NCBI GenBank assembly: GCA_963707635.1
Contig: OY970173.1
Span: 992,001 to 1,056,000 of the forward strand
Length of the DNA stretch: 64,000 nucleotides
From: Candidatus Latescibacterota bacterium
GTDB lineage: Bacteria > Krumholzibacteriota > Krumholzibacteriia > WVZY01 > JAKEHA01
Direction of reading: 5' to 3'
Positions within the stretch are counted from its first letter, which is position 1, and each line of letters starts with the position of its first letter. Under the pieces are notes generated by a model that was not told the origin of the DNA, ran no database searches, and saw only the letters and a program-made list of their open reading frames with translations. Positions 34,799 through 54,961 of this stretch are shown here, in pieces. Made by a program: the position numbers and the translations under genes.

Positions 34799-35653
34799 CT
34801 ACTTAAGCAGAATCACCTTGCGCGTGAGAACGTCATCGCTCGCCTGCACGCGTATCAGGTACACACCGCTGGGAACCGCCCGCCCGTGGCCATCGGTTCC
34901 GTCCCACGTGATCGATTGGGTCTTATAGCCGCTCACGTGCCGGTCGAACTGTGTCACGACGCGTCCGGTTGCGTCGAATACGACGAGTCTGACCGTCGCG
35001 GGCCCCTTCGTCCGAAACGAGATCGTCGTGGAGGGGTTGCACGGATTCGGGTAGACCTTGAGCACGTAGATGGGCGCGGTGCGAACCGTGCGGGGGGAGG
35101 GCGCCGCGGTGACCACGATACGGATGCGCCAGGTGGACTTGCGTGGTGGTTGGGTCACGGTGGAGATCGTGTACCACGCAGAGATCGTGTCCCCTGGCGT
35201 GGCGAGCATGTCGCTGCGTACAATACAGAACGACGGTGCGGTCAGGTTCGGCGGAGGAGTCGGTTCCGGAATGACCGGCCCGACCTCCGGCGACGGGGTT
35301 GGGGTGGGCGTCGCGGGGATCTCCGGGCGTTCCAAAGTGACGATCATGCCGCGGATGATCGGCACGAACGGCCCCGATTCGTCTTTCAGGCTGAACTCGA
35401 TCCCCGGGCCGCCGCGGATCTCGTACAGCAGGCGGCTTCCGGGCTTGGTCGCGATCGACGGAAGCGCGATGCGGCGAGGCTCGCCGGGCCACAACGACGT
35501 AATGGGCAGATCCGCGGCGGTTCCCAGCGCCGTCGTGTCCGCCTGCGCGCTCCGGGTCCCGGCCGGAACCCAGCTGCACGCGCTTGCCTGGATGATACCC
35601 GTGAGCAGACACACTCCGATTGCGGGCATTGCGTGCCCGTACCTCCGGTACAC
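34799..35653 (-). CDS. Secreted protein with Pro/Thr-rich segment and FlgD-Ig/Por-secretion-like C-terminal domain
   Basis: Signal peptide; PATPTPTPSP; YPNPCNPSTTI..VFDATGR..WDG.D..G..VPSGVY..RKVILLK. Confidence 0.72.
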   Translation of the reverse strand: MYRRYGHAMPAIGVCLLTGIIQASACSWVPAGTRSAQADTTALGTAADLPITSLWPGEPRRIALPSIATKPGSRLLYEIRGGPGIEFSLKDESGPFVPIIRGMIVTLERPEIPATPTPTPSPEVGPVIPEPTPPPNLTAPSFCIVRSDMLATPGDTISAWYTISTVTQPPRKSTWRIRIVVTAAPSPRTVRTAPIYVLKVYPNPCNPSTTISFRTKGPATVRLVVFDATGRVVTQFDRHVSGYKTQSITWDGTDGHGRAVPSGVYLIRVQASDDVLTRKVILLK

Positions 35654-36672: not shown

Positions 36673-39397
36673 ATGACCCTCGCCCCCGGCACCCGCCTCG
36701 GCCCCTACGAGATCGTCGCGCCGCTCGGCGCGGGCGGCATGGGCGAGGTCTATCGCGCGCAGCGACACGCGGCTCGGCCGCGACGTCGCGGTCAAGGTGC
36801 TGCCGCAGCACCTGTCCGCGAACCCCGAGGTCCGCGCGCGCTTCGAGCGCGAGGCGAAGACGGTCTCGTCGCTCAACCATCCCGCACATCTGCACGCTGC
36901 TACGACGTCGGCCGCGAGGGCGACACCGACTACCTGGTGATGGAGCTGATCGAGGGCGAGACGCTGGCGGCGCGGCTGGCGAAGGGCGCGCTGCCCGCTG
37001 GCGGAGGTGTTGAAGCTCGGCGCGCAGATCGCCGACGCGCTCGACCGCGCGCACCGCGCCGGCGTCGTGCACCGCGATCTCAAGCCCGGCAACGTGATGC
37101 TGACGAAGTCGCGGCGCGAAGCTGATGGACTTCGGGCTCGCGCGCGCGACGGGCCTGGCGGGGCCCGCCGGCAGCGGGGCGTCGATCGGCGCGCTGACGC
37201 AGTCGCCGACGATGGCGCAGCCGCTGACGGCCGAAGGGACGATCGTCGGGACGTTCCAGTACATGGCGCCGGAGCAGCTCGAAGGCAAGGAGGCCGACGC
37301 GCGCAGCGATCTGTGGGCGCTGGGCTGCGTGCTCTACGAGATGGCGACGGGCAAGCGCGCGTTCGAGGGCAAGAGCCAGGCGTCGCTGATCACCTCGATC
37401 ATGGGCACGCGAGCCCGCGCCGCTCTCGCAAGCTGGCGCCGATGACGCCGCCGGCGCTCGACCGCGTGGTGCAGGCGTGCCTCGCCAAGGACCCGGCGGA
37501 CCGGATCCAGAGCGCGCACGACGTGAAGCTGCAGCTGCAGTGGGCGGTGGAGGGCGGTTCCGTCGCGGGCGCGCCGGCACCGATCGCCGCGCCGACGAGG
37601 CGGCGCGGAAATTTCGTTCCCTGGATCGTCGCGGCGGCGGGGCTGGTCGCTGCGGGCGTAATGTTCGCGCAGAGCAGAGGCGGCGGCCACGAGGAAGCGC
37701 CGTCGCAGGCCGTGCACGCCGCCATTCTGCCCCCAAGCGGTGTCGTCTATTCGTCGAGCACGGATCGCCCGCTTCCGCTCGCGATCTCGCCCGACGGGAG
37801 ACTGGTCGCGTTCTGCGCGCGCACCGGCGAGGGCCCCGACATGCTCTGGGTTCGGTCGGTCGACTCGAACGACGCCCGCGCCATCGCCGGCACCGAGGGC
37901 GCGCAGGGGCCGTTCTTCTCGCCCGACGGGAAGACGATCGGCTTCTTCGCGCGCGGGAAGATGAAGCGCGTCGATACCACCGGCGGCGCGGTGATCACGC
38001 TGGCGGACGGGGGCGACCCGCGCGGCGCGACCTGGAGCCCGAACGGCTGGATCGTCTTCGGGAGCACCGCCTACGGCCCGCTCTGGAAGGTGAGGGAAGA
38101 CGGCGGTGCCGTCGCGGCGGCGACCGTGCTCGATTCGACGCGCGCCGAGGCCACCCACCGCTACCCGTGGTTTCTGCCCGACGGCCGACACTTTCTCTAT
38201 CTCGCCCGGCGCAGCGGCGCGGGTGCCGGCAACGAGCCCACCATCTTCGTGGGAGAATTCGATTCCGCGCAGCGAACCCGCGTGCTCGAGGTGGCGTCCA
38301 ATGTCGCCTACGCGTCGGGGCACCTGCTCTACATCCGCGAAGGCGTGCTGGTCGCGCAGCGCTTCGACCCGAACACGCTCGCGGTTTCCGGCTCCGCGAT
38401 CCCTCTGATCGACGACGCGCGCATGGACGAGCGCTTCAGCCGCGGCGTGTTTTCCGTGTCCACCAACGGCGTGCTGGTGTGCATGACCGGCAAAAATCAG
38501 ACGCGCACGCAGATGCAGTGGTTGGATCGAAGCGGCAAGTGGCTCTCGGACATCGGCGAGCCCACCGACTACACCTACGGCGGAACGCCGGAGCTCTCGC
38601 CCGACGGCGCGCAGTCGGTCATGCCCATCGCGAACCGAGAACGCGGCACGTCGGACGTGTGGCTCGTCGATCTGAATAGCGGGCGTCGTCACCGTTTGAC
38701 CGTCGATGCGTACGATCACCCCGCTGCCACTTGGCACCCCGACGGAAAACGGGTGGCGGTGAGCACCAACCGGGGCGGCGAGAAAATATTCTCGGTGGAC
38801 CTCCTGGCGGTGGACGGGGCGCTGTTGCGCAGCCTGCACCGGGGGGCGGAATACTTGTGGCCGAGATCGATTTCTCCGGACGGCCGCGTGCTCCTCTTCG
38901 ACGCGCCCGAGACCGGGTTGAGGGAACGGTTCGACACCTGGATGGTGTCGATGGCGGGAGATTCCGGCTCGGCGATGATCGCGGGGGGTGAGGGCACGCA
39001 ACAACGGGCCCAATTCTCGCCGGACGGCCGCCTCTTCGCGTACGACTCGGACGAATCGGAGCAGGAAGAGGTGTACGTCGCCGCCTACCCGGGCGGCGGC
39101 AAGTGGCAGGTGTCGCAGGACGGCGGCACCGAGCCGCGCTGGCGGCAGGACGGGGATGAGCTGTACTACGTTGACCGCGACAACTTCATCGTTGCGGTCG
39201 AGACGCGCGCCGGCGGAGCGGCGTTCGAAGCCGGCTCCGCGACGAAGCTCTTCCAGTTTCACGGCGCCGGAGGCCTGTGGCGCTACGACGTCAATGCGGA
39301 CGGCACGCGCTTTTTGGTGACGCGGGCGCTGCAGGAAGACCTGGCTTCCCCGGTGACGCTCATCACCGACTGGACGCGCAAGGTCGCGGGGCGCTGA
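36673..39397 (+). CDS. Ser/Thr protein kinase-TM-TolB/PD40 beta-propeller protein 1; about 7 single-base insertions in the kinase half (likely assembly errors)
   Basis: [20 protein letters not shown] and GTFQYMAPE occur in different frames; SPDG repeats; collinear with 42015..44720. Confidence 0.8.
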
Positions 39398-39401
39398 TCG
39401 C

Positions 39402-42002
39402 GTGATGGCGCTCAATCCCGGCACCCGCCTCGGTCCCTACGAAATCCTCTCGCCCCTCGGTGCGGGCGGGATGGGCGAGGTCTATCGCGCCCGCGACACC
39501 CGGCTCAGCCGCGACGTCGCCGTCAAGGTGCTCCCGCCGCACCTCTCGTCGAACCCGGAAGTCCGCGCGCGCTTCGAGCGCGAGGCGAAGGCGGTTTCGT
39601 CGCTCAACCACCCGCACATCTGCACGCTTTTCGACGTGGGCCGCGAGCGTGACACCGATTTCCTCGTCATGGAGTTCATCGAGGGCGAAACGCTGGCCCG
39701 GCGCCTCGAGAAAGGCCCGCTCCTGACCGAACAGGTGATCACGCTGGGCGCACAGATCGCGGACGCGCTCGCGCGCGCGCACCGCGCGGGCATCGTCCAC
39801 CGCGACTTGAAGCCCGGCAACGTGATGCTGACCAAGTCGGGTGCGAAGCTCATGGATTTCGGCCTGGCGCGCGCCACCGGGCTCGCGGGTGGAGCCGGCA
39901 GCAGCCTGACCATGGAGGGGCTGACGCAATCGCCCACCATGGGGGCGCCGCTCACCTCCGAGGGCACCATCGTCGGCACGTTTCAGTACATGTCGCCCGA
40001 ACAGCTCGAGGGCAAGGAGGCTGACGCGCGCAGCGACATCTGGGCGCTCGGTTGTGTGCTCTACGAAATGGCGACGGGCAAGCGCGCCTTCGAGGGCAAG
40101 AGCCAGGCCAGCCTGATCGTTGCCATCATGGAGAAGCCCGTGGTGTCGCTGGTGGATCTCGCTCCCGCCTCGCCAGCGGCGCTCGACCGTCTGGTACAGG
40201 CGTGTCTTGCGAAGGACCCCGATGATCGCGTGCAGACCGCGCACGACGTCAGACTTCAACTGGGGTGGATGCATGCCGAGACGGCCAGCGCAACCGGCGC
40301 CAGCCCGTCCGTGCGAGGCGGCTCTCGGCGCGCGCGCTGGGTAGCAGGCGCGCTGCTCGTCGTGGCGGCGATCGCGGCCGCGTTCGTGGCCGGGCGCCAG
40401 AACGCGCCGGGCCGCACGTCGACGGCGTTTCAGTTTCAACGCAAGACCTACCGCTCGCAGGCCATCTTCTCGGCGCGCTTCATGCCGGACGGAAAGACGA
40501 TGGTGTTGAGCAGTGCCCTCGAAGGCAACACCACGGAGCTGTTCGTGATCCGGCCCGAGTATCCCGAGCCACAGCCGCTGGGCATGAAGAACGTGCACCT
40601 GCTCGCCGTCTCGTCACGCGGCGAGCTGGCGGTCTTAAACCGCGCCCGTTTCATCGGGCACCACCGGCTCTTCAACGGAACGTTGGCGCGCATGCCACTG
40701 GAAGGTGGCGCACCGCGCGAGATCATGGAGGGCGTTCGTGAGGCAGACTGGGCTCCCGACGGTGAAAACCTCGCCGTCATCCACGAGTTGGACGAAAAGG
40801 ATCGCCTCGAATTTCCGATCGGCAAGGTACTGGTCGAATCCGCCGGCTACTTGAGCGATGTGCGAGTGTCCCCGCGGGGCGACCGCATCGCCTTCATGGA
40901 GCATCCCTCCAAGTACGACGACCGCGGATCGGTCAATGTGGTCGACCTCGAGGGCCACACGCGCGTGCTGACGGGTGGATACTGGGGCATGGAGGGGTTG
41001 GCGTGGTCGCGCGACAACGCCGCCGTGCTCTTCGGCGCCACCACGAACGGGACCGACTACTCCGTGTACCGTGTCGATCTCGACGGGCACGCCGGACCCG
41101 CGGGCCAGAGCGCCGGCGGACTGACGATCCACGACGTCGCGTCCGACGGCACCTGGGCGGTGACGCGGGATGAATACCCGGTCCGGCTCGTCTTCCGCGC
41201 GGCCGGCTCGACCGCGGATGTGGACTTGTCGTGGCTCGACAATGGCATCGACCCCTTCATTTCCGCCGATGGCAAGACGGTCACCTTCACCGACCAGAGC
41301 GAAGGAGCGGGTGCGAACTACGCGGTGGCGGTCCGACCTGCGTCCGGTGGCGCCATCGTCCGGCTGGGTGAGGGCCACGGCCAGGGGTTTTCACCGGATG
41401 GGAAGTCCGTGCTGGCGTTCGTGCCCATCACGCCCTGCCGTCTCATGTCGTACCCGGTCGGTGCCGGACAGCCGGTTCGTCTCGACCGCGGCGGGTTCGA
41501 GAATATCTCCTATGCGCAATGGATGAAGGACGGGAACCACGTACTGGTGAGCGGAAACGAAGCCGGCAAGCCACCGCGCTGCTTCCTGGTTGATGTTTCG
41601 TCGGGCACGTCGGAGCCGGTGGGGCCCGAGGGGATCCGGAGAGGATGCCCATCCCCGGACGGAACCGCTTTCGTCGCCCGATCGCAGTCTGGCTGGACGA
41701 TCTTCCCGATGGCGGACAACGGCGAAGGAACTCCGCTTCCGGCGCTGACGTCGAAGGATTATGTGATCCGGTGGAATCTGGACGGTTCATCCCTTTACTG
41801 TTACCAGCGGGCCACCATTCCCGCCTCGATCGACCGCATCGACGTGAAAACGGGCCGGCGCGAAACCACGCCGCTGCTGGCCGGCGGCGGTGCAGGAGCG
41901 CTTTCCATTCTGTCGGTGGCGATCGCCGATGATCTGCGCTCCGTGGTGTACGGCTCGTGGTCTTACACCTCGGTCCTGTACGCAGTCACGGGCGAGCGAT
42001 AG
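39402..42002 (+). CDS. Ser/Thr protein kinase-TM-beta-propeller protein 2
   Basis: Intact Hanks motifs, TM helix, WAPDG/SPDG repeats. Confidence 0.92.
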   Translation: MMALNPGTRLGPYEILSPLGAGGMGEVYRARDTRLSRDVAVKVLPPHLSSNPEVRARFEREAKAVSSLNHPHICTLFDVGRERDTDFLVMEFIEGETLARRLEKGPLLTEQVITLGAQIADALARAHRAGIVHRDLKPGNVMLTKSGAKLMDFGLARATGLAGGAGSSLTMEGLTQSPTMGAPLTSEGTIVGTFQYMSPEQLEGKEADARSDIWALGCVLYEMATGKRAFEGKSQASLIVAIMEKPVVSLVDLAPASPAALDRLVQACLAKDPDDRVQTAHDVRLQLGWMHAETASATGASPSVRGGSRRARWVAGALLVVAAIAAAFVAGRQNAPGRTSTAFQFQRKTYRSQAIFSARFMPDGKTMVLSSALEGNTTELFVIRPEYPEPQPLGMKNVHLLAVSSRGELAVLNRARFIGHHRLFNGTLARMPLEGGAPREIMEGVREADWAPDGENLAVIHELDEKDRLEFPIGKVLVESAGYLSDVRVSPRGDRIAFMEHPSKYDDRGSVNVVDLEGHTRVLTGGYWGMEGLAWSRDNAAVLFGATTNGTDYSVYRVDLDGHAGPAGQSAGGLTIHDVASDGTWAVTRDEYPVRLVFRAAGSTADVDLSWLDNGIDPFISADGKTVTFTDQSEGAGANYAVAVRPASGGAIVRLGEGHGQGFSPDGKSVLAFVPITPCRLMSYPVGAGQPVRLDRGGFENISYAQWMKDGNHVLVSGNEAGKPPRCFLVDVSSGTSEPVGPEGIRRGCPSPDGTAFVARSQSGWTIFPMADNGEGTPLPALTSKDYVIRWNLDGSSLYCYQRATIPASIDRIDVKTGRRETTPLLAGGGAGALSILSVAIADDLRSVVYGSWSYTSVLYAVTGER

Positions 42003-42014
42003 GAGACCACGTCG

Positions 42015-44720
42015 ATGGTACTCACTCCCGGCACCCGCCTCGGCCCCTATGAAATCCTCTCGCCCCTCGGGGCGGGCGGAATGGGCGAGGTCTACCGCGC
42101 GCGCGACACCCGGCTGGGTCGCGACGTCGCGATCAAGGTGCTGCCCCAGCATCTCTCGTCGAACGCCGAGGTGCGTTCGCGCTTCGAACGCGAAGCGAAG
42201 ACCGTCTCGGGGCTGAACCACCCCCACATCTGCACGCTTTTTGACGTGGGGCGCGAGAACGATACCGACTTTCTGGTGATGGAGTTGATCGAGGGCGAGA
42301 CGCTTGCTGCCCGGCTCGCCAAGGGAGCGCTCCCGGCGGTGGAGGTGCTGCGACTCGGCACCCAGATCGCCGACGCGCTCGACAAGGCGCACCGCGCAGG
42401 GATCGTCCACCGCGACTTGAAGCCCGGCAACGTGATGCTGACGAAGTCGGGGGCGAAGCTGATGGACTTCGGACTCGCGCGCGCATCGGGGCTGGTGGGG
42501 CCGTCCGGCTCGGGCGCGTCGATCGCGGCGCTGACCCAGTCGCCTACGGTGGCGCAGCCGCTGACGGCGGAGGGGACGATCGTCGGGACGTTCCAGTACA
42601 TGTCGCCCGAGCAGCTCGAGGCGAAGGACGCGGACGAGCGCAGCGACATCTGGTCGCTGGGTTGTGTGCTCTACGAAATGGCGACCGGCAAGCGCGCGTT
42701 CGAGGGCAAGAGCCAGGCCTCGCTGATCGGTGCGATCATGAGCACGGAGCCCGCGCCCATTTCGCAGGTGGTTCCGATGACGCCGCCCGCCCTGGATCGG
42801 GTGGTGCACGCGTGTTTGGCCAAGGATCCGGCGGACCGCATCCAGAGCGCGCACGACGTGAAGCTCCAGCTCGCGTGGATCGGCGAAGGCGGGCAGGGGG
42901 GAGCGCCCGAATCCGTCGCGAAGCGCCGCCGTGGTTTCGGGTGGTTGCCCTGGGTGGCGGTGGTGGTGGTCGCGATGGTGGCCACGGACATTGTGCGGCA
43001 GCTCACGACCGGCTCCGACGAAGGCGAAGCGCTGGTGACGCGCACGACCATCGGCGCTCCGCCCGGCGCGCGCCTCGAGATCTCGGGTGACGACGCGGGT
43101 CCGCCGGCGCTTTCGCCCGACGGCACCATGCTGGTGTTTTCCGCCGTGGGCGGCGGGGGGGGAAAGCGCCTCTGGCTGCGCCGGCTCGACGACTTCACCG
43201 CCCGCGCGCTCCCGGGAACGGACGGGGCGAGCTATCCGTTCTGGTCTCCGGACAGCCGGTCGATCGGTTTCTTCAGCCCGACCAAGCTGAAGCGGCTCGA
43301 CCTGGCGCAGGGTTCCGTGATTACGGTTTGCGACTCCGTGGATGCGGCGCGCGGCGGAACCTGGTCGCGCGACGGCGTCATCCTGTTCACCCCGGCGTTC
43401 TGGGAGGGACTCTTCCAGGTGCCGGCCTCGGGCGGACAGCGCCGCCGCGTGACGACTCCGGACTCCACCTCCGAAACGACCCACCGCTTTCCGCAGTTCA
43501 TGCCGGACGGTCGTCATTACATCTATCTATCGGCCAATCACCGCGTACCGGACGCAAACACGTCGGCCATCTACTACGGTTCGCTCGACGGCGGGGAACG
43601 CCGTCCGCTGTTCGCCTCCAAGAGCAACGCCGTCTACGCGCAGGGGTTCCTCCTGTTCGTGCGCGACAGTACTCTAATGGCGCAGGAATTCGACGCCGCC
43701 AGCGGGACCGTGAAGGGCGCCCCCCGGGCGACGCGCGAGGTGGTCCAGCTCGACCGCTCGACGTGGAACGCGACCATCACCGCGGCGGAGAACGGCGTGC
43801 TCGTGTACGGTCTCGGAGGGCGCTCCGGAAACTGCCGCGTGTCGTGGTACGAGCGTTCCGGGGTCCGGACCAAGGCACTGTCGTCGTTCGGAAATCTCCT
43901 GGCCATCGATCTTTCACCGGACGACCGCCGGGTGGTGATGGAGTGGCAGCAGACCCCGCTGGCCGACGACTGGGTGATCGACGTGGCGACGGGAACCCGC
44001 TCGCGCGTGACCACCGGCGCCGACGACGAAACCGCCCCCATCTGGCTGCCGGATGGGAAGCGAGTCGCCTACGGCGCCCGGGAGTCGGAGAAGTACAGCA
44101 TCTACTTCAAGCGGGCGGATGGATCTGCCGACCCGGAGCTGTTCCTCAATGATCCGGTCGAAGACGTCTGGCCCCTCTCCGCGTCGCGCGACGGGAAGTG
44201 GATCGCGTACGGCAAGGGGGTCGCGTCGGGAACCGCGCACGGAGCGCTGTGTATCAAGCCGCTCACGGGCCCGGGTGCGGCTCGCGTGCTGGTACCGGCA
44301 GCCGACGCCTTCGTGGGCGCGCAGTTCTCGCCGGACGCGAAGTGGATCGCGTTCTCGGCGTCGGTGTCGGGCCGCCCCGAGGTCTATGTGGCACCGGTAC
44401 CCGCCAGCGGCGAAGGCCTCTCCGCCCGCTGGCAGGTCTCCGGCAACGGGGGCGACCGTCCGCGGTGGCGCGGCGACGGGCGCGAACTCTACTACGTCCG
44501 GCCCGACTGCACGATCATGGCCGTCTCCGTCGACGGCTCCGGCACTGAATTTCGTGTCGCCGGCGAGACGCCTCTGTTCCAGGCGTTTCAGCGCATCCTC
44601 GCCCAGACGATGGATGTAAGCAGCGACGGCCAGCACTTCGTCATTAATGCGCTGGGCGGCGACGAGGGCGAGCCGCTCGCGATCGTCGCCAACTGGCTCC
44701 AGACCCTCGCCTCGCCCTAG
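42015..44720 (+). CDS. Ser/Thr protein kinase-TM-TolB/PD40 beta-propeller protein 3
   Basis: Intact Hanks motifs, TM helix, PFWSPD/FSPD repeats. Confidence 0.92.
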   Translation: MVLTPGTRLGPYEILSPLGAGGMGEVYRARDTRLGRDVAIKVLPQHLSSNAEVRSRFEREAKTVSGLNHPHICTLFDVGRENDTDFLVMELIEGETLAARLAKGALPAVEVLRLGTQIADALDKAHRAGIVHRDLKPGNVMLTKSGAKLMDFGLARASGLVGPSGSGASIAALTQSPTVAQPLTAEGTIVGTFQYMSPEQLEAKDADERSDIWSLGCVLYEMATGKRAFEGKSQASLIGAIMSTEPAPISQVVPMTPPALDRVVHACLAKDPADRIQSAHDVKLQLAWIGEGGQGGAPESVAKRRRGFGWLPWVAVVVVAMVATDIVRQLTTGSDEGEALVTRTTIGAPPGARLEISGDDAGPPALSPDGTMLVFSAVGGGGGKRLWLRRLDDFTARALPGTDGASYPFWSPDSRSIGFFSPTKLKRLDLAQGSVITVCDSVDAARGGTWSRDGVILFTPAFWEGLFQVPASGGQRRRVTTPDSTSETTHRFPQFMPDGRHYIYLSANHRVPDANTSAIYYGSLDGGERRPLFASKSNAVYAQGFLLFVRDSTLMAQEFDAASGTVKGAPRATREVVQLDRSTWNATITAAENGVLVYGLGGRSGNCRVSWYERSGVRTKALSSFGNLLAIDLSPDDRRVVMEWQQTPLADDWVIDVATGTRSRVTTGADDETAPIWLPDGKRVAYGARESEKYSIYFKRADGSADPELFLNDPVEDVWPLSASRDGKWIAYGKGVASGTAHGALCIKPLTGPGAARVLVPAADAFVGAQFSPDAKWIAFSASVSGRPEVYVAPVPASGEGLSARWQVSGNGGDRPRWRGDGRELYYVRPDCTIMAVSVDGSGTEFRVAGETPLFQAFQRILAQTMDVSSDGQHFVINALGGDEGEPLAIVANWLQTLASP

Positions 44721-44767
44721 GCGAACCCCTCTCGGCGCGGCGTCGCGTTTGCGATAGAATCCGCCGC

Positions 44768-47045
44768 ATGCACCTTTCCACCGGCATCCGCCTGGGCCCC
44801 TACGAAATTCTCGCCCCCCTCGGCGCGGGGGGCATGGGCGAGGTCTATCGCGCGCGCGACACCAGGCTCGACCGCGAGGTGGCGGTCAAGGTGCTCCCGA
44901 CCTCCGCCCGGGAGGACCGGGAAGCCCGGGCGCGGTTCCGGCGCGAGGCGCTCGCACTCTCGCGGCTCAACCATCCCAACATCGAGATGGTGCTCGACTT
45001 CGGCGAGGATGGCGGCGTCGATTACATGGTGCTCGAGTTCGTGCCGGGGGAGACGCTGGCCGCGCGGGTGGCGCGGGGCCGCATCCCCGAGCGCGAAGCC
45101 GCCGAACTCGGTGCGCAGGTCGCCGAGGCGCTCAGCGAAGCCCACGAGCGCGGCGTCCTCCACCGGGACCTGAAGCCGGGCAACATCATGGTGACACCCA
45201 AGGGGCGGGTGAAGGTGCTCGACTTCGGGCTGGCGAAACTCGCGCAAGTGCCGAGCGACGAGACGCGCAGCATGGACGTGACCCAGGCCGGGACGGCACC
45301 GGGGACACTCGCCTACATGGCGCCCGAGCAGCTCTTGGGCACGCCGATCGACGCGCGCACAGACCTATATGCCCTCGGCGTGGCGCTCTACGAAATGACG
45401 ACCGCACGGCGCCCGTTCGAGGCGCCGCTGGCGACCGCGCTGGCCAACGAAGTGTTACACGGGAAGCTTGCGCCGCCGCGCGCGCACGAACCGTCGCTCT
45501 CGGCGCGCGCCGAGGCGATCATCCTGCGCGCGATGGAGCGCGAAAGCGCGCGGCGCTACCAGACCGCGGGCGAGATGCTCGGCGAACTGCGGCGCCTGTC
45601 GGCGGCGGACGCGAGTGATTCGGGTGAAGCTCGGGGGACGACGACCGCCCCGTCACGCCGGGTGACCTCGATCGCGGTACTCCCGCTCGAGAACTTGTCC
45701 GGCGATCCCGCGCAGGAGTACTTCTCGGACGGCATGACCGAAGAACTGATCGCGTGCCTCGCGCAGGTGCGCGCGCTGCGCATCATCTCGCGCACGTCGG
45801 TGATGCGGTACAAGGGTCAGCGAAAGGCGATCCCCGATATCGCGCGCGAGCTCAACGTGGACGCGGTGGTCGAGGGCTCCGTGCGCCGGGCGGGCGACCG
45901 CGTGCGGATCACCGCGCAGCTCATCGACGCATCGAGCGAGCGTCACCTGTGGGGCAAGTCGTACGAGCGCGACATGAAGGAAGTGCTCGCGCTGCAGGGC
46001 GAGGTGGCGGCGGCAATCGTGGACGAGATTCAGGTCAGCGTGACGCCGCAGGAAGAGACGCGCCTGCGGGACGCGCGCGCGGTGAATCCCGAAGCATATC
46101 GAGGCCTACCTGAAGGGGCGCTATCTCATCGAGCGTCGGACCGACGAGAACGCTTCAGGAGGGACTCGCGTGCCTCGAACGAGGCCGTGCGTATCGATCC
46201 TTCGCTGGAACTGGCGCACGTCGGCGTGGCCGACGCCTACAACCTGATGGGATTCTGGACCGGCGTGCCGCCGCGGGAGGCTTTCCCGCACGCCCGGGCC
46301 TCCGCGCAGCAAGCGCTCGAGATCAACCCCGCCAGCGCGGAGGCGCTGACCTCGCTCGCCTACGGGACGTTCTGGCACGACTGGAATTTCGCGGAGGCCG
46401 AACGCCTCTACCGCCGTTCGATCGATCTGAATCCGAAGTACTCGCAGGCGCACCTGTGGCTCGCGAACTTGCTGGTCGGGGACGGCCGGTTCGAGGAGGC
46501 GAAAGCGGAAGCTCAGGTTGCCCGGACGCTCGATCCGGTCTCCAACATTGCAATCACCTCGGGAGGATGGTGCCCCTACTATGCAGGGAGCTTCGACGAG
46601 GCGGTTCGCCTGTATCGCGACGCAACTCGGTTGATTCCCGATTTTGGACCTCTCCACTTGTGGATGGGACTGGCGTGCGCGCAAGCGGACCTCGACGCCG
46701 AGGCCATGGCGGCGCTTGCCGGCTGCGTCGAGATTCTGGGGCGCACGCCGGTGGTAGCTCTCGGCGCTAGCGGTCGCCCACGCGCGCGCGGGGCGGACGT
46801 CGGAGGCGCGCGCTCTCCTGTCCGAGCTGGAAGCGCTGTCCGCCCACCGCTACGTCGGCAGCGTACTACTTCGCGCAGGTACTGGTGGCGCTGGGCGATC
46901 ACGACGCCGCGTTCGCCGCTCTCGAGAAGGCCCTCGAAGAGCGGGCTCACTGGCTGGCATTCAGTCCGACGTGGATCCGGCGCTCAACGCGCTTCGAGGC
47001 GACTCGCGTTTCGAGGCACTGGCCGCGCGCGTGGGCATCCAGTAG
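44768..47045 (+). CDS. Ser/Thr protein kinase + TolB-N-like + TPR protein; frameshifted after about 46095
   Basis: Kinase motifs; SIAVLPLENLSGD..QEYFSDGMTEELI; TPR helices; terminal frame ...FEALAARVGIQ-TAG 47043-47045. Confidence 0.8.
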
Positions 47046-47071
47046 GATTTCGCCGATCGAATCACCAGGAG

Positions 47072-47106
47072 AAACGGCCACCCCGGCGAACCGGGATGGC
47101 CGTTTT
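47072..47106. terminator. Probable bidirectional terminator between convergent genes
   Basis: AAACGGCCA-C-CCCGG/CGAA/CCGGG-A-TGGCCGTTTT. Confidence 0.75.
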
Positions 47107-47125
47107 CGTCGAAAGCAGAGATCCT

Positions 47126-47680
47126 CTACCGATAGAGCGACTTGATCTGTCCCCAGGTGGAAACCTCGGTCGAGACCGTGGTCCTCTCCACTGTGAGCCA
47201 GATCTTCCAGCTCGCGGCTGTGGGGCCGAAGTTCATGGTGACTTCGCACTTGTACTGGCCGGTGACCATGATCGGGAGCAACGGATTGACGATGCTGAAG
47301 CCGGTATCCGTGAGGTTGTCTCCAGCTTTCTTGACCTTGTGGGACAGCACGGTACCGTACGGTGGGGCTGCTTCGACCGGGCCGGACATATCGAAATATG
47401 ATTGGTCGCCGCTGTTCGCCGAATACTCCCAGTGGATGCTGATAATCGCCATGTCCGCCGGCAGGTTGGCGAAGAACGAATCCTGCGTATTCGAGGTCGG
47501 CGTCGGCCCAATCGAGCCTATCCACGTGTTGACGCCGGCATCCAGCGTGAACGTGGGCGGGTTGGACTGGTCCAGGTCGCCGTCGACGGCTTCGTTATAG
47601 TTGACTACCGCGGCGAGACTTCCGCCGGCCAGTGTCACGGATAAGAGAGCGCACAAGAGACCTGTCTTGGCAGTTTTCAT
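47126..47680 (-). CDS. Secreted protein ending in STWGQIKSLYR
   Basis: SD GGGAGG; signal peptide; YNEAVDGDL N-terminus; C-terminal tail motif. Confidence 0.8.
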   Translation of the reverse strand: MKTAKTGLLCALLSVTLAGGSLAAVVNYNEAVDGDLDQSNPPTFTLDAGVNTWIGSIGPTPTSNTQDSFFANLPADMAIISIHWEYSANSGDQSYFDMSGPVEAAPPYGTVLSHKVKKAGDNLTDTGFSIVNPLLPIMVTGQYKCEVTMNFGPTAASWKIWLTVERTTVSTEVSTWGQIKSLYR

Positions 47681-47892: not shown

Positions 47893-48942
47893 ATGAGCGA
47901 CAAGGATCAGAGATTCAGACTCACCGAGTTTGCGGCATGCGCCGGTTGAGCCTCCAAATTCAGCGCAGCGGGACTGCGCGAGATACTCCGTGAGCTCCCG
48001 CTTCCGGCCGATCCCAACGTGCTCGTGGGCCACGCCGGAAGCGACGATGCCGGGGTCTATCGTCTCTCGGACGAGGCGGCGATGGTGCTGACGGTCGACT
48101 TCTTCACGCCCATCGTCGACGACCCGTACGACTACGGGCGTGTCGCCGCGACGAATTCGATCTCGGACATCTACGCGATGGGGGGCCGGCCGGTGGTCGC
48201 CCTCAACATCGCGGCGTTCCCGGAAAAGGGGCTTCCGGCGGAGGCGCTTCGCGAGATCATCCGGGGCGGCGCCGACGTGGCGCGCGCGGCCGGGGTTTCG
48301 ATCGTCGGCGGGCACACCGTCAACGACCCGGAGCTCAAGTACGGTCTTGCCGTCGTCGGGATGATCGACCCGCGCCGCATCGTGCGTAACGGTGGCGCGC
48401 GGGTGGGGGACCGTCTTGTCCTCACCAAGCCCATCGGAACGGGTGTGCTGGCCACGCAGTTGAAGGCCGGCGCGCTGTCATCGCAAGCGACGGAGCGGCT
48501 GGTAGGCGTGATGACGCACTTGAACCGGGAAGCGTCGGAGCTGATGCTCCGTCACGACCCGCACGCGTGCACGGACATTACCGGCTATGGACTGATCGGC
48601 CACGCGAACGAGATGGCGGAGGCGAGCGGGGTGTCGATCGTGTTGCGAGCGGCCGCGGTGCCGCTGATCGAAGGCGCGATGGAAGCGGCCGCGCACGGCT
48701 ATCTCACCGGCGGCGGCAACACCACGCGCAAGTTCCTCGCCGAGCGCGTGCGCATGGCGCCCCCGGTGGGGGAGACGATGACGTCGCTGCTGTTCGACCC
48801 GCAGACCGCGGGCGGGCTCCTGATCGCGGTCGCGCCCGATCAGGCCGATGCGTTGCTGGCGAAGCTCAAGCAGCATCACCCGCACGCTTCCATCATCGGC
48901 GAGTGCGTGGCGCGCACAGATGTCTCAATAATCGTTGAGTAG
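47893..48942 (+). CDS. selD: Selenide, water dikinase SelD, selenoprotein form (Sec19 at TGA 47947-47949), 349 aa
   Basis: SD GGAGGTGA + ATG 47893; MSDKDQRFRLTEFAACAG-U-ASKF in frame with DDAGVY, TVDFFTP, NSISDIYAMGG, GGHT, LTKPIGTG, TDITGYGL, DPQTAGGLL. Confidence 0.95.
47963..47979 (+). promoter_or_regulatory. Putative SECIS element of selD
   Basis: GCGCAG/CGGGA/CTGCGC hairpin; loop starts 19 nt after the UGA. Confidence 0.68.
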
Positions 48943-50778: not shown

Positions 50779-53076
50779 CTATTTCAACAGCAGTAACTTT
50801 CGCACACGGGAGGTGGCCCCGTCCACGGTCAATCTAACAAAATAGACACCGGTCGGGGACGGAGCGCCCCGGCCGTCGCGGCCGTCCCACCTGGATACGT
50901 ATGTTCCGGGGGATCTCGTTTCGTTGACCAGGGTCACGACGCGAGAGCCCGTGACCGAAAAGACCGCCAGCTCGACCCGCGCCGGCACTCCGCCCACCGC
51001 TCCTCCCACCACGAACGGGATCTGTGTGGTCGGATTGAACGGGTTTGGGTAGTTGGGCCCAATGTCGGTGCGGAATACCCGCGGCGCATCGGCGGCGGTC
51101 AGCGTCGCGACCACGCCGTCGCGCGTGTTGCTCCACCGGCTTGCGTGATCCTCCGCGTCGCGCGCGCGGACGCGGTAGCGCCATGTGCCGGTGGCGGCCG
51201 GGACGTAATCGTAGAGCGTATCCGTCACTCCACTCGCCAGTATGGAGACGCTCCCGCACCCGATCGCGAAGTCGATGTTGTCGACGCGAATTCCGGTTCC
51301 CACCGTCGCTTGATCGGTGACGTACGCGAAGCGCAACATGATTTCCTGACCCGCATACGCCGTGAGCGGAAAGATGGCGTCGACCCATCCATAGCTCGAG
51401 CCGGTGAACCCGTGCCCAAGGTTGTTCCCGGTCGGGTTCGCCGGGGTGGTGATGTTGCCCGCGATAGTCGTCCAGATTACGCCGCCGTTGGTGCTCACCT
51501 GCACGTAGCCGTAGTCGTAGTTCTGCTCGGTCAGGTAGTTCACGCTGAAGCGCAGCGAGTCGGTCGCCGCCTCGACCACGAACGGGCGGTCCATGGTGAG
51601 CGTGTGCATGATGCCGTTGCCGTTTCCGGCGTCGTAGCCTCCGCCGCTCAACCCGGAGGCGGTGTAGAAAAACCCGTTCGACGTCCATCCCGTCAAAGAC
51701 GGTGTGCACGTGTCGACGAAACGAAACGGGTTCAGGCACCCCTCGACGTCGTACGAGACGACCGGGTTGGGATCGGCCGGGTCGTTACCGGTCCACGAGA
51801 TCCGGGTGATGGCGTTCGCGTACGGGGACTGCAGCGCGTACTGCGAGGGCGGGTGAGGCGCCACCACACGGTAGGGGTTGTCGCCCCACTCGAGCAGCTT
51901 GAGGTTCATCGGGAGCAGCAGGTCGAATGTCGGCTGAATGAGCGATTCCGGCGGGCCGAAGCCGCCCTGCGCCTGGCTGTTCACCTCCGGCGTGAGCGCG
52001 AATATCTTTCCCTTGCTCGCCTGTTCGCCGTAGCCCCAGTCGTCGGAGTCGCCGTTGGTCCGATAGATCGCTCCCATGGCCGGGTTGCCGGTCAGGTATC
52101 CGTTCTCCCGGGCGAGCGTGTCCGCGAGCGCTGCGAACACCTCGTGATCCGGCGTGAAGGCGAAGGTGTAGCCCCACCCGTAGAGCAGGAGTTCGCCGTA
52201 GCTGTGGTACGAGAGCCAGGTGGTGAACTCGCGCGTGTTGACGAAGTCGCGGATACGCTGCGTCTCCGGTTCGGAGAACCCGCTGGTGCCACGGTAGGTC
52301 TCGCTCGACGTGCTCGGCGACGACCCGATGTTGTCGTAGCCCCACTGGTAGCCGTAATTCCGATTCAAGTCGACGCCGAAGGTCCCGTTGCCGTTGTTGC
52401 GCCGGTTCTTGCGCCACCAACCCGACCAGTGGCCGGCGTGGTTCTGCTGAACGTAGACGTGCCCGTCCGGGTTGACCATGGGCAGGAAGAAGATCTCGCG
52501 CGTGTCGATGTAGCGGGTGATGTCGGCGTCGACGCCGTAGTGCTCGAGCAGGTACTTCGCGAAGCGCAGCGGGATCTCGACGCTCATGAGCTCGCGCGCG
52601 TGGTGGTCGCCCATGTAGAGAATCTCCGGCTCGTTCTCGTCTATGGAGACGTTATCGGAGACCTTGAGCACGGTGAGGTTGCGGTTCTGGAGGCTTTTCC
52701 CGATGTGCACCGTATCCGCGATCGCGGGGTAGGTGGCCTCCAGGTACGCCAGGACCGATTCGGTCTCGGCGTAGGTGTGGTAGAGGCCCAGATTCGCGTC
52801 GATGATCATCGGCGGCGGCGCGAGCGGCTCGATCACGGAGACGGACACGGGATAGGGGCGCGACAGCAGGAAATCGAGCGCGGGGCCGTCGGCTAGGACA
52901 TCGACGCCGTGCCGGGTGAAGGCGAGGATCTCGATGCCGCGGGCCTGGAATTCCTCGAGCTGGACGGGTCCCTTATAGGGGACGGTGACGACGGCGGTCG
53001 CGCCGAAACCGGGCCTGACCGCCCCGGCCAGGCAGGAAGCGGCAAGAACGCCCGTGAGCCAGCGACGCGGGGCCAT
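50779..53076 (-). CDS. Secreted M14 zinc carboxypeptidase (CpT-like) with InhA/MAM-like and FN3-like domains and FlgD/Por-like CTD
   Basis: HHARE, NPDG, WRKNR, GVDLNRN, SEPET, HSYG; NYPNPFNPTT..WDGRD..GVYF..RKLLLLK; start ATG 53076. Confidence 0.88.
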   Translation of the reverse strand: MAPRRWLTGVLAASCLAGAVRPGFGATAVVTVPYKGPVQLEEFQARGIEILAFTRHGVDVLADGPALDFLLSRPYPVSVSVIEPLAPPPMIIDANLGLYHTYAETESVLAYLEATYPAIADTVHIGKSLQNRNLTVLKVSDNVSIDENEPEILYMGDHHARELMSVEIPLRFAKYLLEHYGVDADITRYIDTREIFFLPMVNPDGHVYVQQNHAGHWSGWWRKNRRNNGNGTFGVDLNRNYGYQWGYDNIGSSPSTSSETYRGTSGFSEPETQRIRDFVNTREFTTWLSYHSYGELLLYGWGYTFAFTPDHEVFAALADTLARENGYLTGNPAMGAIYRTNGDSDDWGYGEQASKGKIFALTPEVNSQAQGGFGPPESLIQPTFDLLLPMNLKLLEWGDNPYRVVAPHPPSQYALQSPYANAITRISWTGNDPADPNPVVSYDVEGCLNPFRFVDTCTPSLTGWTSNGFFYTASGLSGGGYDAGNGNGIMHTLTMDRPFVVEAATDSLRFSVNYLTEQNYDYGYVQVSTNGGVIWTTIAGNITTPANPTGNNLGHGFTGSSYGWVDAIFPLTAYAGQEIMLRFAYVTDQATVGTGIRVDNIDFAIGCGSVSILASGVTDTLYDYVPAATGTWRYRVRARDAEDHASRWSNTRDGVVATLTAADAPRVFRTDIGPNYPNPFNPTTQIPFVVGGAVGGVPARVELAVFSVTGSRVVTLVNETRSPGTYVSRWDGRDGRGAPSPTGVYFVRLTVDGATSRVRKLLLLK

Positions 53077-53187
53077 GGCGTCATTATAGCGGATACCGCG
53101 CGCGGCGGCCCCTGACAACGCTCGCCAGGGACCGGAATTCCGATGGTCGCAACGCACGGGGATCGCTAAACTTCAGGAAACGGCGTC

Positions 53188-54279
53188 ATGGAGAATCTCC
53201 TTAAGAAGCAGCTCGCCCAGATCAAATCCCGCGCCCTCGCGCTGGCGGGGCGCGCCGGCGGACCCGATCCAATCCCAGGGGCCGCCACCTCGACCGACCC
53301 GGGCCGCGAAATCATCGAGGCCGTTATTCAGACCGGCGCGGTTTTCCGTGGCGCGGATGCCGACCGGCTCCGGACGTCGCGCCGGTTTCCGTGGTGGTTT
53401 CGCCGGCGCCTGATTCACGAGCGCCAGTCGGGATTCGAAGGGGAATTCCAGCGCGTGCTGGAGGAGTTGGCCGACGGCGCTCCCCTTGAGTTCGAGCGCG
53501 CCATTCCCGGCGAGGTGCGCACCCTGGATGCGGCCGGCTATTACCTCGTGCGCCTGGCCGGCAACCAGATCGATCCGATTGCCGCGGCCGAGGCGGAGCG
53601 CCTGGCGTCGTTGTCCGTCTGGCCGGCAGACATCGTCCGCACCGTCGTGGGCGAGCGCCGCAACCGCGCGATCGTCGACCTGGCCGACGATGTCTCGCCG
53701 CCGTCCCTGCTGTTTCTCGATATCGAGACGGCCGGGCTCTCCGCCAATACGTACGTGTTTCTGTGCGGTCTGATGTACTGGGCGAACGGGGAGTTCGTCG
53801 TCGAGCAGGCGTTCGCGCGCGATTATGCCGAAGAGGAAGGCCTGCTTCGCCACGTGCGGGCCGCCATCGATCGCTTCGGCACCGTGGTCACCTATAACGG
53901 GGCCAGCTTCGACATCCCATTTCTACGCACGCGCATGGCGGTGCACCGCGTGCCCGACATCGAGCCGGTCGGGTCGGTGGACCTGCTGCACTCGTCGCGG
54001 CGAATGTTCCGCGGCGTGCTTCCAAACTGCCGGCTGGTCACCGTCGAGCGGCATCTGCGCGGAGTCGACCGCGTCGATGACATCCCGAGCCGGTACATCC
54101 CGCGCGCGTACCACGAGTTCGTTCGCAGCCGGGACGCGCGCATCATGCGCAACGTCGTCTACCACAACCGCATGGATCTGTTCACCATGGCGGTGATCCT
54201 GAACCACTTCGCGGGTTCGCCCGCTGACGACGATGTGACCCGCGGGGGAAGGGTTCCTGGACCGGTACAGCGGCCTTGA
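53188..54279 (+). CDS. RNase H-like DEDD exonuclease (YprB/MrfB-like)
   Basis: FLDIETAG, YNGASFDIP, DLLH, HNRMDL; 3' end uncertain (overlaps convergent gene). Confidence 0.82.
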   Translation: MENLLKKQLAQIKSRALALAGRAGGPDPIPGAATSTDPGREIIEAVIQTGAVFRGADADRLRTSRRFPWWFRRRLIHERQSGFEGEFQRVLEELADGAPLEFERAIPGEVRTLDAAGYYLVRLAGNQIDPIAAAEAERLASLSVWPADIVRTVVGERRNRAIVDLADDVSPPSLLFLDIETAGLSANTYVFLCGLMYWANGEFVVEQAFARDYAEEEGLLRHVRAAIDRFGTVVTYNGASFDIPFLRTRMAVHRVPDIEPVGSVDLLHSSRRMFRGVLPNCRLVTVERHLRGVDRVDDIPSRYIPRAYHEFVRSRDARIMRNVVYHNRMDLFTMAVILNHFAGSPADDDVTRGGRVPGPVQRP

Positions 54280-54961
54280 TTCCGCCCCACGTGCTGTTGG
54301 CCACCGGCAGCGACCCGCCCGAAACCTCCACGTGGACGTTCTCGATCGCCCACGACTCGTCGGTTCCGCCCTGCCACTGAAGCGCGGCCGGCCCCGACAC
54401 CGCGCTCAATTTCCAGACGACGGTCAGCGTGCTCGCCGTGTGCGGGATCAGCATGAACGCAGGCTCGACCGCCATGTTGTAGGCCCGGTCGCGACCCCAG
54501 TAACCGCCGTTCGTGAACCCGAGATTGGTACCGGAGCTCAAGAGCCCTCCGGCCGGCGCCACGTAGCTGGACGCGTCTCCGGTGGCGAGCTGGAACCAAT
54601 GGTTGAACAGGAGATTGCCATCGACCGTTACCTGGAAGAGCTCTGTGCCGTCCCACGAGTCGATCACCCCGAGCAGGAAACCGAGGCTCACGTAGGTGTG
54701 GGCAGGGAGGCCGGTGAGCGTCAGCTGGGTATCCAGTAGGGGCACGCTCGTGTAGTGCAGGAACTTACCAGCGAACTGGTTCCCCAGGGGACCGAGCCCC
54801 GCGTAGCCCTGGACTCCGTCGAGAACCGCGCCCGGGGCCGACATCTCCGCCGGGAGGCCGCTCTCGAAGTCGGTATAGAAGACGGTCTGCGCGCCCGCTG
54901 CCCCCGCGAACAGGGCGACGGCGAACACGGCAATCCCGATGCGGGCAATGGCACTGGTCAT
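54182..54961 (-). CDS. Secreted beta-sandwich protein with STWGGIKA(LYR)-type tail; C-terminus probably frameshifted
   Basis: SD GAAAGGA + ATG 54961; signal peptide; FYTDFE, IDSWDG, DESWAIEN; removing one base gives STWGGIKALYR. Confidence 0.75.
   Translation of the reverse strand: MTSAIARIGIAVFAVALFAGAAGAQTVFYTDFESGLPAEMSAPGAVLDGVQGYAGLGPLGNQFAGKFLHYTSVPLLDTQLTLTGLPAHTYVSLGFLLGVIDSWDGTELFQVTVDGNLLFNHWFQLATGDASSYVAPAGGLLSSGTNLGFTNGGYWGRDRAYNMAVEPAFMLIPHTASTLTVVWKLSAVSGPAALQWQGGTDESWAIENVHVEVSGGSLPVANSTWGGIKAAVPVQEPFPRGSHRRQRANPRSGSGSPPW

Follow-up and report, generated by a model that had tools for sequence, protein, structure and literature searches.

Sorting signals define the surface proteome of a bacterium. 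The tags of the PEP-CTERM/exosortase and GlyGly-CTERM/rhombosortase systems are short, portable and C-terminal, and they sit on small beta-rich secreted proteins. In Slam/type XI secretion and LptD–LptE, outer-membrane barrels are paired with lipoproteins. The type A CTD of the T9SS is served by the PorV shuttle and the PorU sortase. The PorU sites mapped in P. gingivalis read X/(GSA)(VLI) in Table 2 of PMC4560394, and none of the 17 sites mapped there has Pro at P1′; a passage of PMC4804311 describes PorU cleavage as sequence-independent. Short Prevotella CTDs still have three beta-strands according to PMC11969387, and type B CTDs use specialised PorP/SprF-like barrels according to PMC12618676. 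Judged from its sequence, the tail described here behaves as a C-terminal sorting signal that lies outside the type A CTD and PEP-CTERM classes.

Results

Two tail-bearing proteins in the window

The window is the whole stretch of 64,000 nucleotides that was analysed; it belongs to a 3.2 Mb single-contig genome (G000), and its homologs are labelled Ca. Krumholzibacteria. Secreted protein 1 (47126..47680, minus strand; 184 aa) consists of a Sec signal peptide (47612..47680, minus strand; called by a heuristic), a jelly-roll beta-sandwich body, a linker and a TWG tail, and its ORF ends in ...TVSTEVSTWGQIKSLYR*. The tail core TWGQIKSLYR and the stop codon occupy 47126..47158 (minus strand), with a predicted helix at mature residues 153–158 and with W, G, K, L and Y invariant in alignment A2. 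The preceding spacer VSTEVS (47159..47176, minus strand) varies between orthologs and stands in the register of the linker preceding T9SS CTDs. The DNA pattern from T-W-G to the stop (47158–47126) was matched once in the window and in 0 of 100 shuffles, and every protein 1 homolog has retained the tail (21/21). In the AF2 model (mean pLDDT 82), a jelly-roll body (1–143), whose predicted fold is similar to PPC/collagen-binding domains, is followed by coil and by the separate helix 153–158 at a pLDDT of about 70. Pfam and NCBIfam returned no match for either the tail or protein 1.

Secreted protein 2 (54257..54961, minus strand; about 233 aa) is interrupted near its end, the ORF from 54961 reading ...LPVANSTWGGIKA and then running out of frame at surplus assembly bases (54272 and 54259–54260). 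Its tail (54257..54292, minus strand) reads TWGGIKA, which orthologs and an independent contig continue with LYR*. Indeed, the nearest homologs (P0022–P0024; 89–90% identity) terminate in STWG(G/A)IKALYR*, and the short-read evidence, which is one contig of depth 2.6 with 0 substitutions over 54124–54390, has one base fewer at 54272 and two fewer at 54259, giving ...IKALYR*. Because this low-depth contig and the orthologs both give IKALYR*, the frameshift was most likely introduced during assembly, and the initial annotation, which had the second copy ending in -LYR once its frame was corrected, was right on this point. Further frameshifts affect tail genes elsewhere in the G000 assembly. Over 54223–54272, seven surplus bases at four places relative to the otherwise identical short-read contig represent local long-read assembly errors.

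Tail gene 2 is flanked by an RNase_H_2 exonuclease (53188–54279) and an Hrq1/MrfA-type helicase (56906–59497). In another genome (G196, L403), the homologs of both flanking genes lie side by side with a different TWG-tailed gene behind them, an arrangement that suggests an insertion site for tail genes. Elsewhere in the window is a tandem array of four Ser/Thr kinase genes (37007–47401, plus strand), of which one encodes TPRs and the other three PD40/TolB-like propellers; the first gene of the array shows an apparent 5′ truncation or frameshift. A SelD ORF (48019–48942, plus strand) lacks the first ~38 model positions; either a frameshift or an in-frame TGA coding for selenocysteine may be present upstream.

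A portable C-terminal tail in the genome and across phyla

The regular expression [ST]WG.[IVL]K..[YF], proposed in the initial annotation as a check on C-termini, had 42 matches in the six frames of G000, and all but one of these (41) fall no more than 15 aa from a stop. A PSSM run over 72,135 Trp-anchored windows gave 45 sites at 25 bits or more, the next score being 14.6 bits; 43 of these sites are C-terminal, one is an internal tandem copy and one is the window frameshift, compared with 14.6% of all Trp sites lying that close to a stop. The motif is thus a real, non-random C-terminal signal. Signal peptides were called by the heuristic in 35/44 tail ORFs and in 41/44 with manual starts (by eye, three more at a later start and three in an upstream frameshifted piece); we call the heuristic loose because its ATG-only form passes 417/1060 background segments, compared with 32/44 tails. 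The view that one C-terminal tail is shared by unrelated secreted proteins therefore holds: the tail turned out to be neither rare, nor scattered away from the C-termini of signal-peptide proteins, nor part of a known folded domain.

A 22-column tail profile matched in 151/151 genomes and 69/69 genera of the host phylum, with 1 to at least 58 sites per genome. It also matched in 29/41 genomes of the Eisenbacteria-labelled phylum at a strict E ≤ 1e-6, and two MAGs labelled Gemmatimonadota by their submitters have 58 and 52 tail sites. A pattern scan of GTDB gave at least 121 stretches, with Eisenbacteria, Krumholzibacteriota, Latescibacterota and unnamed labels making up most of the matches listed. 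The tail is not expanded in the Zixibacteria-labelled phylum (31 genomes).

Tail cargo is small (144–305 aa in the 35 signal-peptide proteins) and diverse, Pfam recognising CHRD, LTD, DUF7450, cupredoxin and weak DUF4082 domains among 24 tail proteins and giving no match for the others. As the motif occurs on unrelated folds, and as a CTD takes its place on homologs, it is not tied to one domain family. The tail is very probably a portable envelope address or docking tag. It is real and uncatalogued: no family model was found, and searches of open-access literature (PMC and bioRxiv main text) gave no description of it. Tail genes are not significantly clustered near CTD genes in G000 (14/44 within 5 kb, compared with 10.2 ± 2.8 at random). 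In the flanks of 80 GTDB tail loci, CTD genes are the commonest recurrent neighbours and no candidate reader gene recurs.

The tail is predicted as a separate helix behind a linker, with a core of 10 residues. It had been described as an amphipathic 11-residue tag; the conserved element is longer, about 16 residues (V/T-x3-S/T-W-G-x-I/V-K-x-L-Y/F-R/K, including the spacer). MinD-type membrane-targeting sequences are amphipathic lipid-binding helices, and the tail might likewise attach its cargo to a membrane leaflet with no protein reader. Such a role would suit the hydrophobic face formed by W, I/V, L and Y, the basic flanks, the mean alpha hydrophobic moment of 0.47 and the lack of a cleavage consensus. 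However, the near-invariance of the tail, with its fixed G and K, exceeds what lipid binding needs, its mean hydrophobicity is about 0.02, it also occurs on lipoproteins that are already lipid-anchored, and it has been lost jointly with a specific cassette (see below), which makes a purely lipid-binding helix improbable.

The tail compared with PEP-CTERM and T9SS signals

The initial annotation had noted the absence of a PEP-CTERM or TM anchor, and indeed no TM segment was found in the correctly started tail proteins of G000, which for this reason fall outside the PEP-CTERM definition (PEP motif, TM helix and basic cluster). The tail could still be a truncated PEP-CTERM processed by exosortase, given that TEPSTWG is similar to the start of the lone PEP-CTERM of G000, ATPEPSTWMLLG, and that this genome has one exosortase. 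Against this, the tail has neither the TM helix nor the basic cluster, and exosortase (PF09721) was found in only 34/65 tail-bearing genomes and in 0/21 of family f6, so that we regard this origin as very improbable. As a tail reader, exosortase was rejected, since none was found in 31/65 tail-bearing genomes compared with SprA in 65/65. At C1:3019684–3020307 and 2034773–2035525, G000 has its lone PEP-CTERM protein and one exosortase in an exopolysaccharide-type locus. Two tails, those of P0084 and P0099 (APEPVHASWSRVKAMHRD and APEPAAATTWSRLKAMHRD), are variants in which a PEP-like spacer is joined to the helix. A half-dockerin/cohesin idea was dropped for a register mismatch, seen by eye.

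Another reading takes the tail for a minimal T9SS signal, which SprA and a PorV paralog would recognise and whose spacer PorU would cut to anchor the cargo. G000 encodes PorU, SprA, about 100 proteins with a type A CTD and seven PorV-family genes above cut-off; SprA was found in 65/65 tail-bearing genomes and PorU in 42/42; GldM and GldN were not found in G000 in a search run without a positive control. The sole secretin of G000 sits in a type IV pilus operon, presumably of the pilMNOPQ type, which speaks for the T9SS and led us to reject type II secretion as a route.

Two CTDs in the window served for comparison, that of the 34799–35653 protein (34811..35056, minus strand; TIGR04183, 44 bits) and that of an M14 carboxypeptidase (50779–53157, PF00246; CTD at 50794..51051, minus strand; 28.4 bits), both above cut-off. 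The tail exchanges with such domains in register, in agreement with the initial proposal of a tag parallel to the FlgD/Por-like CTD. Of two neighbouring paralogs, C1:1065923 ends in ..IDDVYFARRVPLPTEPSTWG and C1:1066653 in ..IDDVYFGGLVPTGVGD..CTD, matched in register, and a second swap involves a domain family common to a tail protein and a 1204-aa CTD frame. Among 120 homologs of protein 2, 106 were classed as CTD by regular expression (at least one of them wrongly), nine carry TWG, two TWG variants and three other ends; on a quick tree of this family, the TWG label changes four times, at least two changes being forced. Moreover, when a PSSM built from the spacers of foreign tails was run over 89 own CTD proteins, its peak fell on the linker ahead of the CTD, with a score of 3.34 compared with 2.27 ± 0.27 (maximum 3.17) in 1000 shuffles. 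The P1′–P2′ slot reads (G/S/A)(V/L/I/T) in 27/42 own tails, resembling the P. gingivalis sites listed in PMC4560394, and 35/142 foreign tails fit a PorU site.

Other observations disagree with a T9SS signal. TIGR04183, PF18962 and PF13860 gave 0 matches for both window tail proteins and the 22 A2 members, and where a CTD has at least three strands and motifs B, D and E, AF2 predicts coil and then helix 153–158, a helical end that differs from the three strands kept by the short CTDs covered in PMC11969387. Pro occupies the P1′ slot in 11/42 own tails, 77/142 foreign tails and 9/9 swapped TWG members of the protein 2 family, and Zixibacteria tails have D/E there; the slot varies between orthologs, while W, G, K, L and Y are fixed. 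The P1′ argument against PorU cleavage is weakened because cleavage is described as sequence-independent in PMC4804311. Nevertheless, as P1′ is often Pro and variable next to the fixed W, G, K, L and Y, the helix seems to be the recognised part of the tail and its cleavage is doubtful. A TWG motif ahead of a CTD was found in 0/89 CTD proteins of G000, and no PorV clade is clearly tail-specific in a tree of 66 PorV-family rows, a partial sampling with 28 rows from 53 Zixibacteria matches. Finally, the tail family is missing from 19–20 Zixibacteria that retain PorU, and the distribution of the tail follows a different cassette. Taken with the swaps, these points leave a minimal T9SS signal unlikely.

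Several T9SS-related loci of G000 were noted in passing. At C1:2725491–2732933, three tail genes and a further gene, whose end looks dockerin-like by eye, precede a PorU-like C25 protein with an apparent frameshift. At C1:231877–242087 and 1369409–1376033, PorV-family genes are linked to ExbB/ExbD/TonB-like genes (by eye) and to a TonB-receptor-like gene; with GldM/GldN not detected, the T9SS is possibly energised by the ExbB/ExbD/TonB-like products instead. At 237954, 1548275, 2030474, 2502193, 2523031 and 2562256, most PorV paralogs come immediately after a single large protein whose end is CTD-like, which suggests private barrel–cargo pairs.

A candidate cassette that accompanies the tail

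Behind ksgA in G000, outside the window (C1:371617–376850, L244), three tail sites and a near-motif are clustered. The cassette found there consists, in order, of a 656-aa protein ending in Phe, a lipoprotein (LP1) and paralogs of a second one (LP2). The 656-aa protein is likely an outer-membrane barrel, by its sequence features, and has no match in Pfam, NCBIfam or the PDB. The LP2 paralogs of G000 are frameshifted or fused in the assembly, one having both an internal and a terminal TWG motif. With one query, LP1 was found in 22/40 genomes, and its profile matched in 11/11 further Krumholzibacteriota, 8/10 Eisenbacteria and 11/31 Zixibacteria; the gene order ksgA–barrel–LP1–LP2 is common to the three phyla. 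Two tail-rich Eisenbacteria (G174 and G191) gave no LP1 match at E ≤ 1e-4 and have no barrel next after ksgA; as the cassette is diverged and relocated in G161 and G164, whose ksgA neighbourhood is the same as in these two, it was possibly missed by the search.

LP1 has a predicted NTF2-like fold with a C-terminal helix (164–175) at pLDDT 98, the sole protein in which a form of the tail-related helix is predicted as integral. This (S/T)WG helix is predicted to pack on the LP1 body, with which it covaries weakly (best z 8.0). Its consensus is (T/S)-W-G-x-L-(R/K)-G, with Trp in 83% of the sequences (121 scorable of 150 representatives), and it differs from the tail by L-R-G in place of I-K-x-L-Y. 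The LP1 helix has no Trp in several Krumholzibacteriota lineages, whose cargo tails were detected with a Trp-invariant profile. In Zixibacteria, the LP1 terminus reads SW(A/G)x(F/L)KxxYR*, in the register of the tail. LP1 and LP2 are paralogs whose match stops at the start of the helix (P 99.2%), and extra LP2 copies with full TWG tails occur in G000, G012, G157 and G196.

The Zixibacteria allow the tail and the cassette to be followed together. A single-copy secreted family of 140 aa with the tail STWGKIKALF(K/R) is present in 11/31 genomes, LP1 is found in the same 11/31 although the genes are unlinked, and PorU is found in 31/31. The last 11 columns of this family are 95% conserved compared with 54% for the body (120/120 homologs), a figure raised artificially by the search, which was word-based, used a query that included the tail and favours tailed matches; by this pattern, the tail appears clearly to be under strong, protein-like selection. 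On the PorU tree, the 11/31 distribution corresponds to four Dollo losses, and a simulation of independent losses with G151 left out gave the exact pattern in 5/200,000 runs (2.5e-5); the co-loss is based on one tailed family, four events and a single-gene FastTree. In 19/20 negatives, a different gene lies directly behind ksgA and the cassette is absent at the syntenic site. This gene is the one following the cassette in positive genomes in 11 negatives; seven have the gene found next to the cassette in G220, which we take to be pdxJ-like, and four a TonB-receptor-like gene that adjoins the cassette in G208 and G224. In the remaining genome, G151, a single tail fragment lies at the edge of a contig, LP1 was not matched, and the ksgA contig ends 289 nt past the gene. 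Since only 7/11 positives were picked up by the tail profile, the negatives may contain divergent tails; two negatives have a similar domain on CTD proteins. Instead of being a model cargo, the tailed protein may belong to the module itself as a fourth subunit. It is transthyretin-like (L230:7606–8022 and orthologs), and its gene lies directly downstream of what is presumably a Rex-type regulator gene in 5/7 loci first examined, a possible link between envelope display and redox regulation.

Discussion

We propose, with the chances about evenly balanced, that the tail is an uncleaved docking helix that binds the barrel–LP1–LP2 cassette for display at the outer membrane. The partner would be a non-covalent protein and not a sortase, because exosortase is missing in 31/65 genomes, because P1′ is often Pro and because the tail is lost with the cassette. 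In such a pathway, Sec would carry the cargo, on which signal peptides are seen, to the periplasm, where it would fold and leave the tail free on its spacer. The tail would then dock on an NTF2-like lipoprotein, at its helix site: the site of LP1 is probably occupied by its own (S/T)WG-x-L-K/R helix, that of LP2 would be open, or else the tail may dock on LP1 and displace the resident helix. Finally, the barrel would hold or pass the cargo at the outer membrane for display similar to that of CTD-bearing homologs, surface display being postulated because tail and CTD swap on homologous cargo. The barrel might be a specialised T9SS shuttle, comparable to PorP/SprF for type B CTDs, or an export route of its own.

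The tail may instead bind the cassette for periplasmic retention, or for regulating or plugging the barrel, with no part in export or display. The co-occurrence data would be the same, the helix is also part of LP1 and of several LP2 paralogs, and the surface exposure of tail cargo is postulated from the CTD swaps. However, homologous cargo bears T9SS CTDs, a look-alike cluster bears PEP-CTERM (TM 0.69, a lead only), and up to about 50 different cargo per genome are many for one regulatory site; retention or plugging thus seems rather improbable. Carried to its full extent, the docking model would combine the 650-aa barrel, both NTF2-like lipoproteins and the tail into an undescribed pathway of surface display or secretion in several FCB-related candidate phyla. 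Cargo would be captured by donor-helix complementation, the tail taking the place of the helix that LP2 lacks, and the tail would have been copied from the LP1 helix onto hundreds of unrelated proteins. We put this larger scheme forward tentatively, as somewhat doubtful.

Across entire uncultured phyla, a single genome can have as many as about 50 "hypothetical proteins" marked by the tail. The candidate reader is directly testable, as it involves three genes, one peptide of 16 residues and a predicted site of binding, all of which a laboratory host could express. If the proposal is true, it would represent a new route of outer-membrane display, or a third class of T9SS signal where PorM/PorN motor parts were not found. 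Besides, a ten-residue non-covalent display tag is a potential tool.

Among known systems, PEP-CTERM/exosortase and GlyGly-CTERM/rhombosortase resemble the present one in the type of cargo and in their tag, which is short, portable and C-terminal and is found on many small secreted proteins rich in beta-structure, but the tail has no TM helix and no co-occurring exosortase. With the T9SS type A CTD, it shares a C-terminal position after a flexible linker, Sec-exported cargo of the same families in the same genomes and a similar V/T-E spacer core; it differs by being a predicted helix of about 16 aa instead of a beta-sheet domain of 40–80 aa, by the absence of a model match, by a P1′ that is often Pro or D/E and by a distribution that tracks another cassette. 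Slam/type XI secretion and the LptD–LptE barrel–plug pairs also have an outer-membrane barrel and lipoproteins acting on periplasmic cargo, an analogy only, as no sequence similarity was detected. Finally, the type B CTD with its PorP/SprF-like shuttle barrels is alike in that, according to PMC12618676, a signal class is matched to its own barrel, which sets the final location. The differences are that the barrel described here (about 650 aa) has no database match and is joined by two NTF2-like lipoproteins, and that one cassette per genome would serve up to about 50 cargo.
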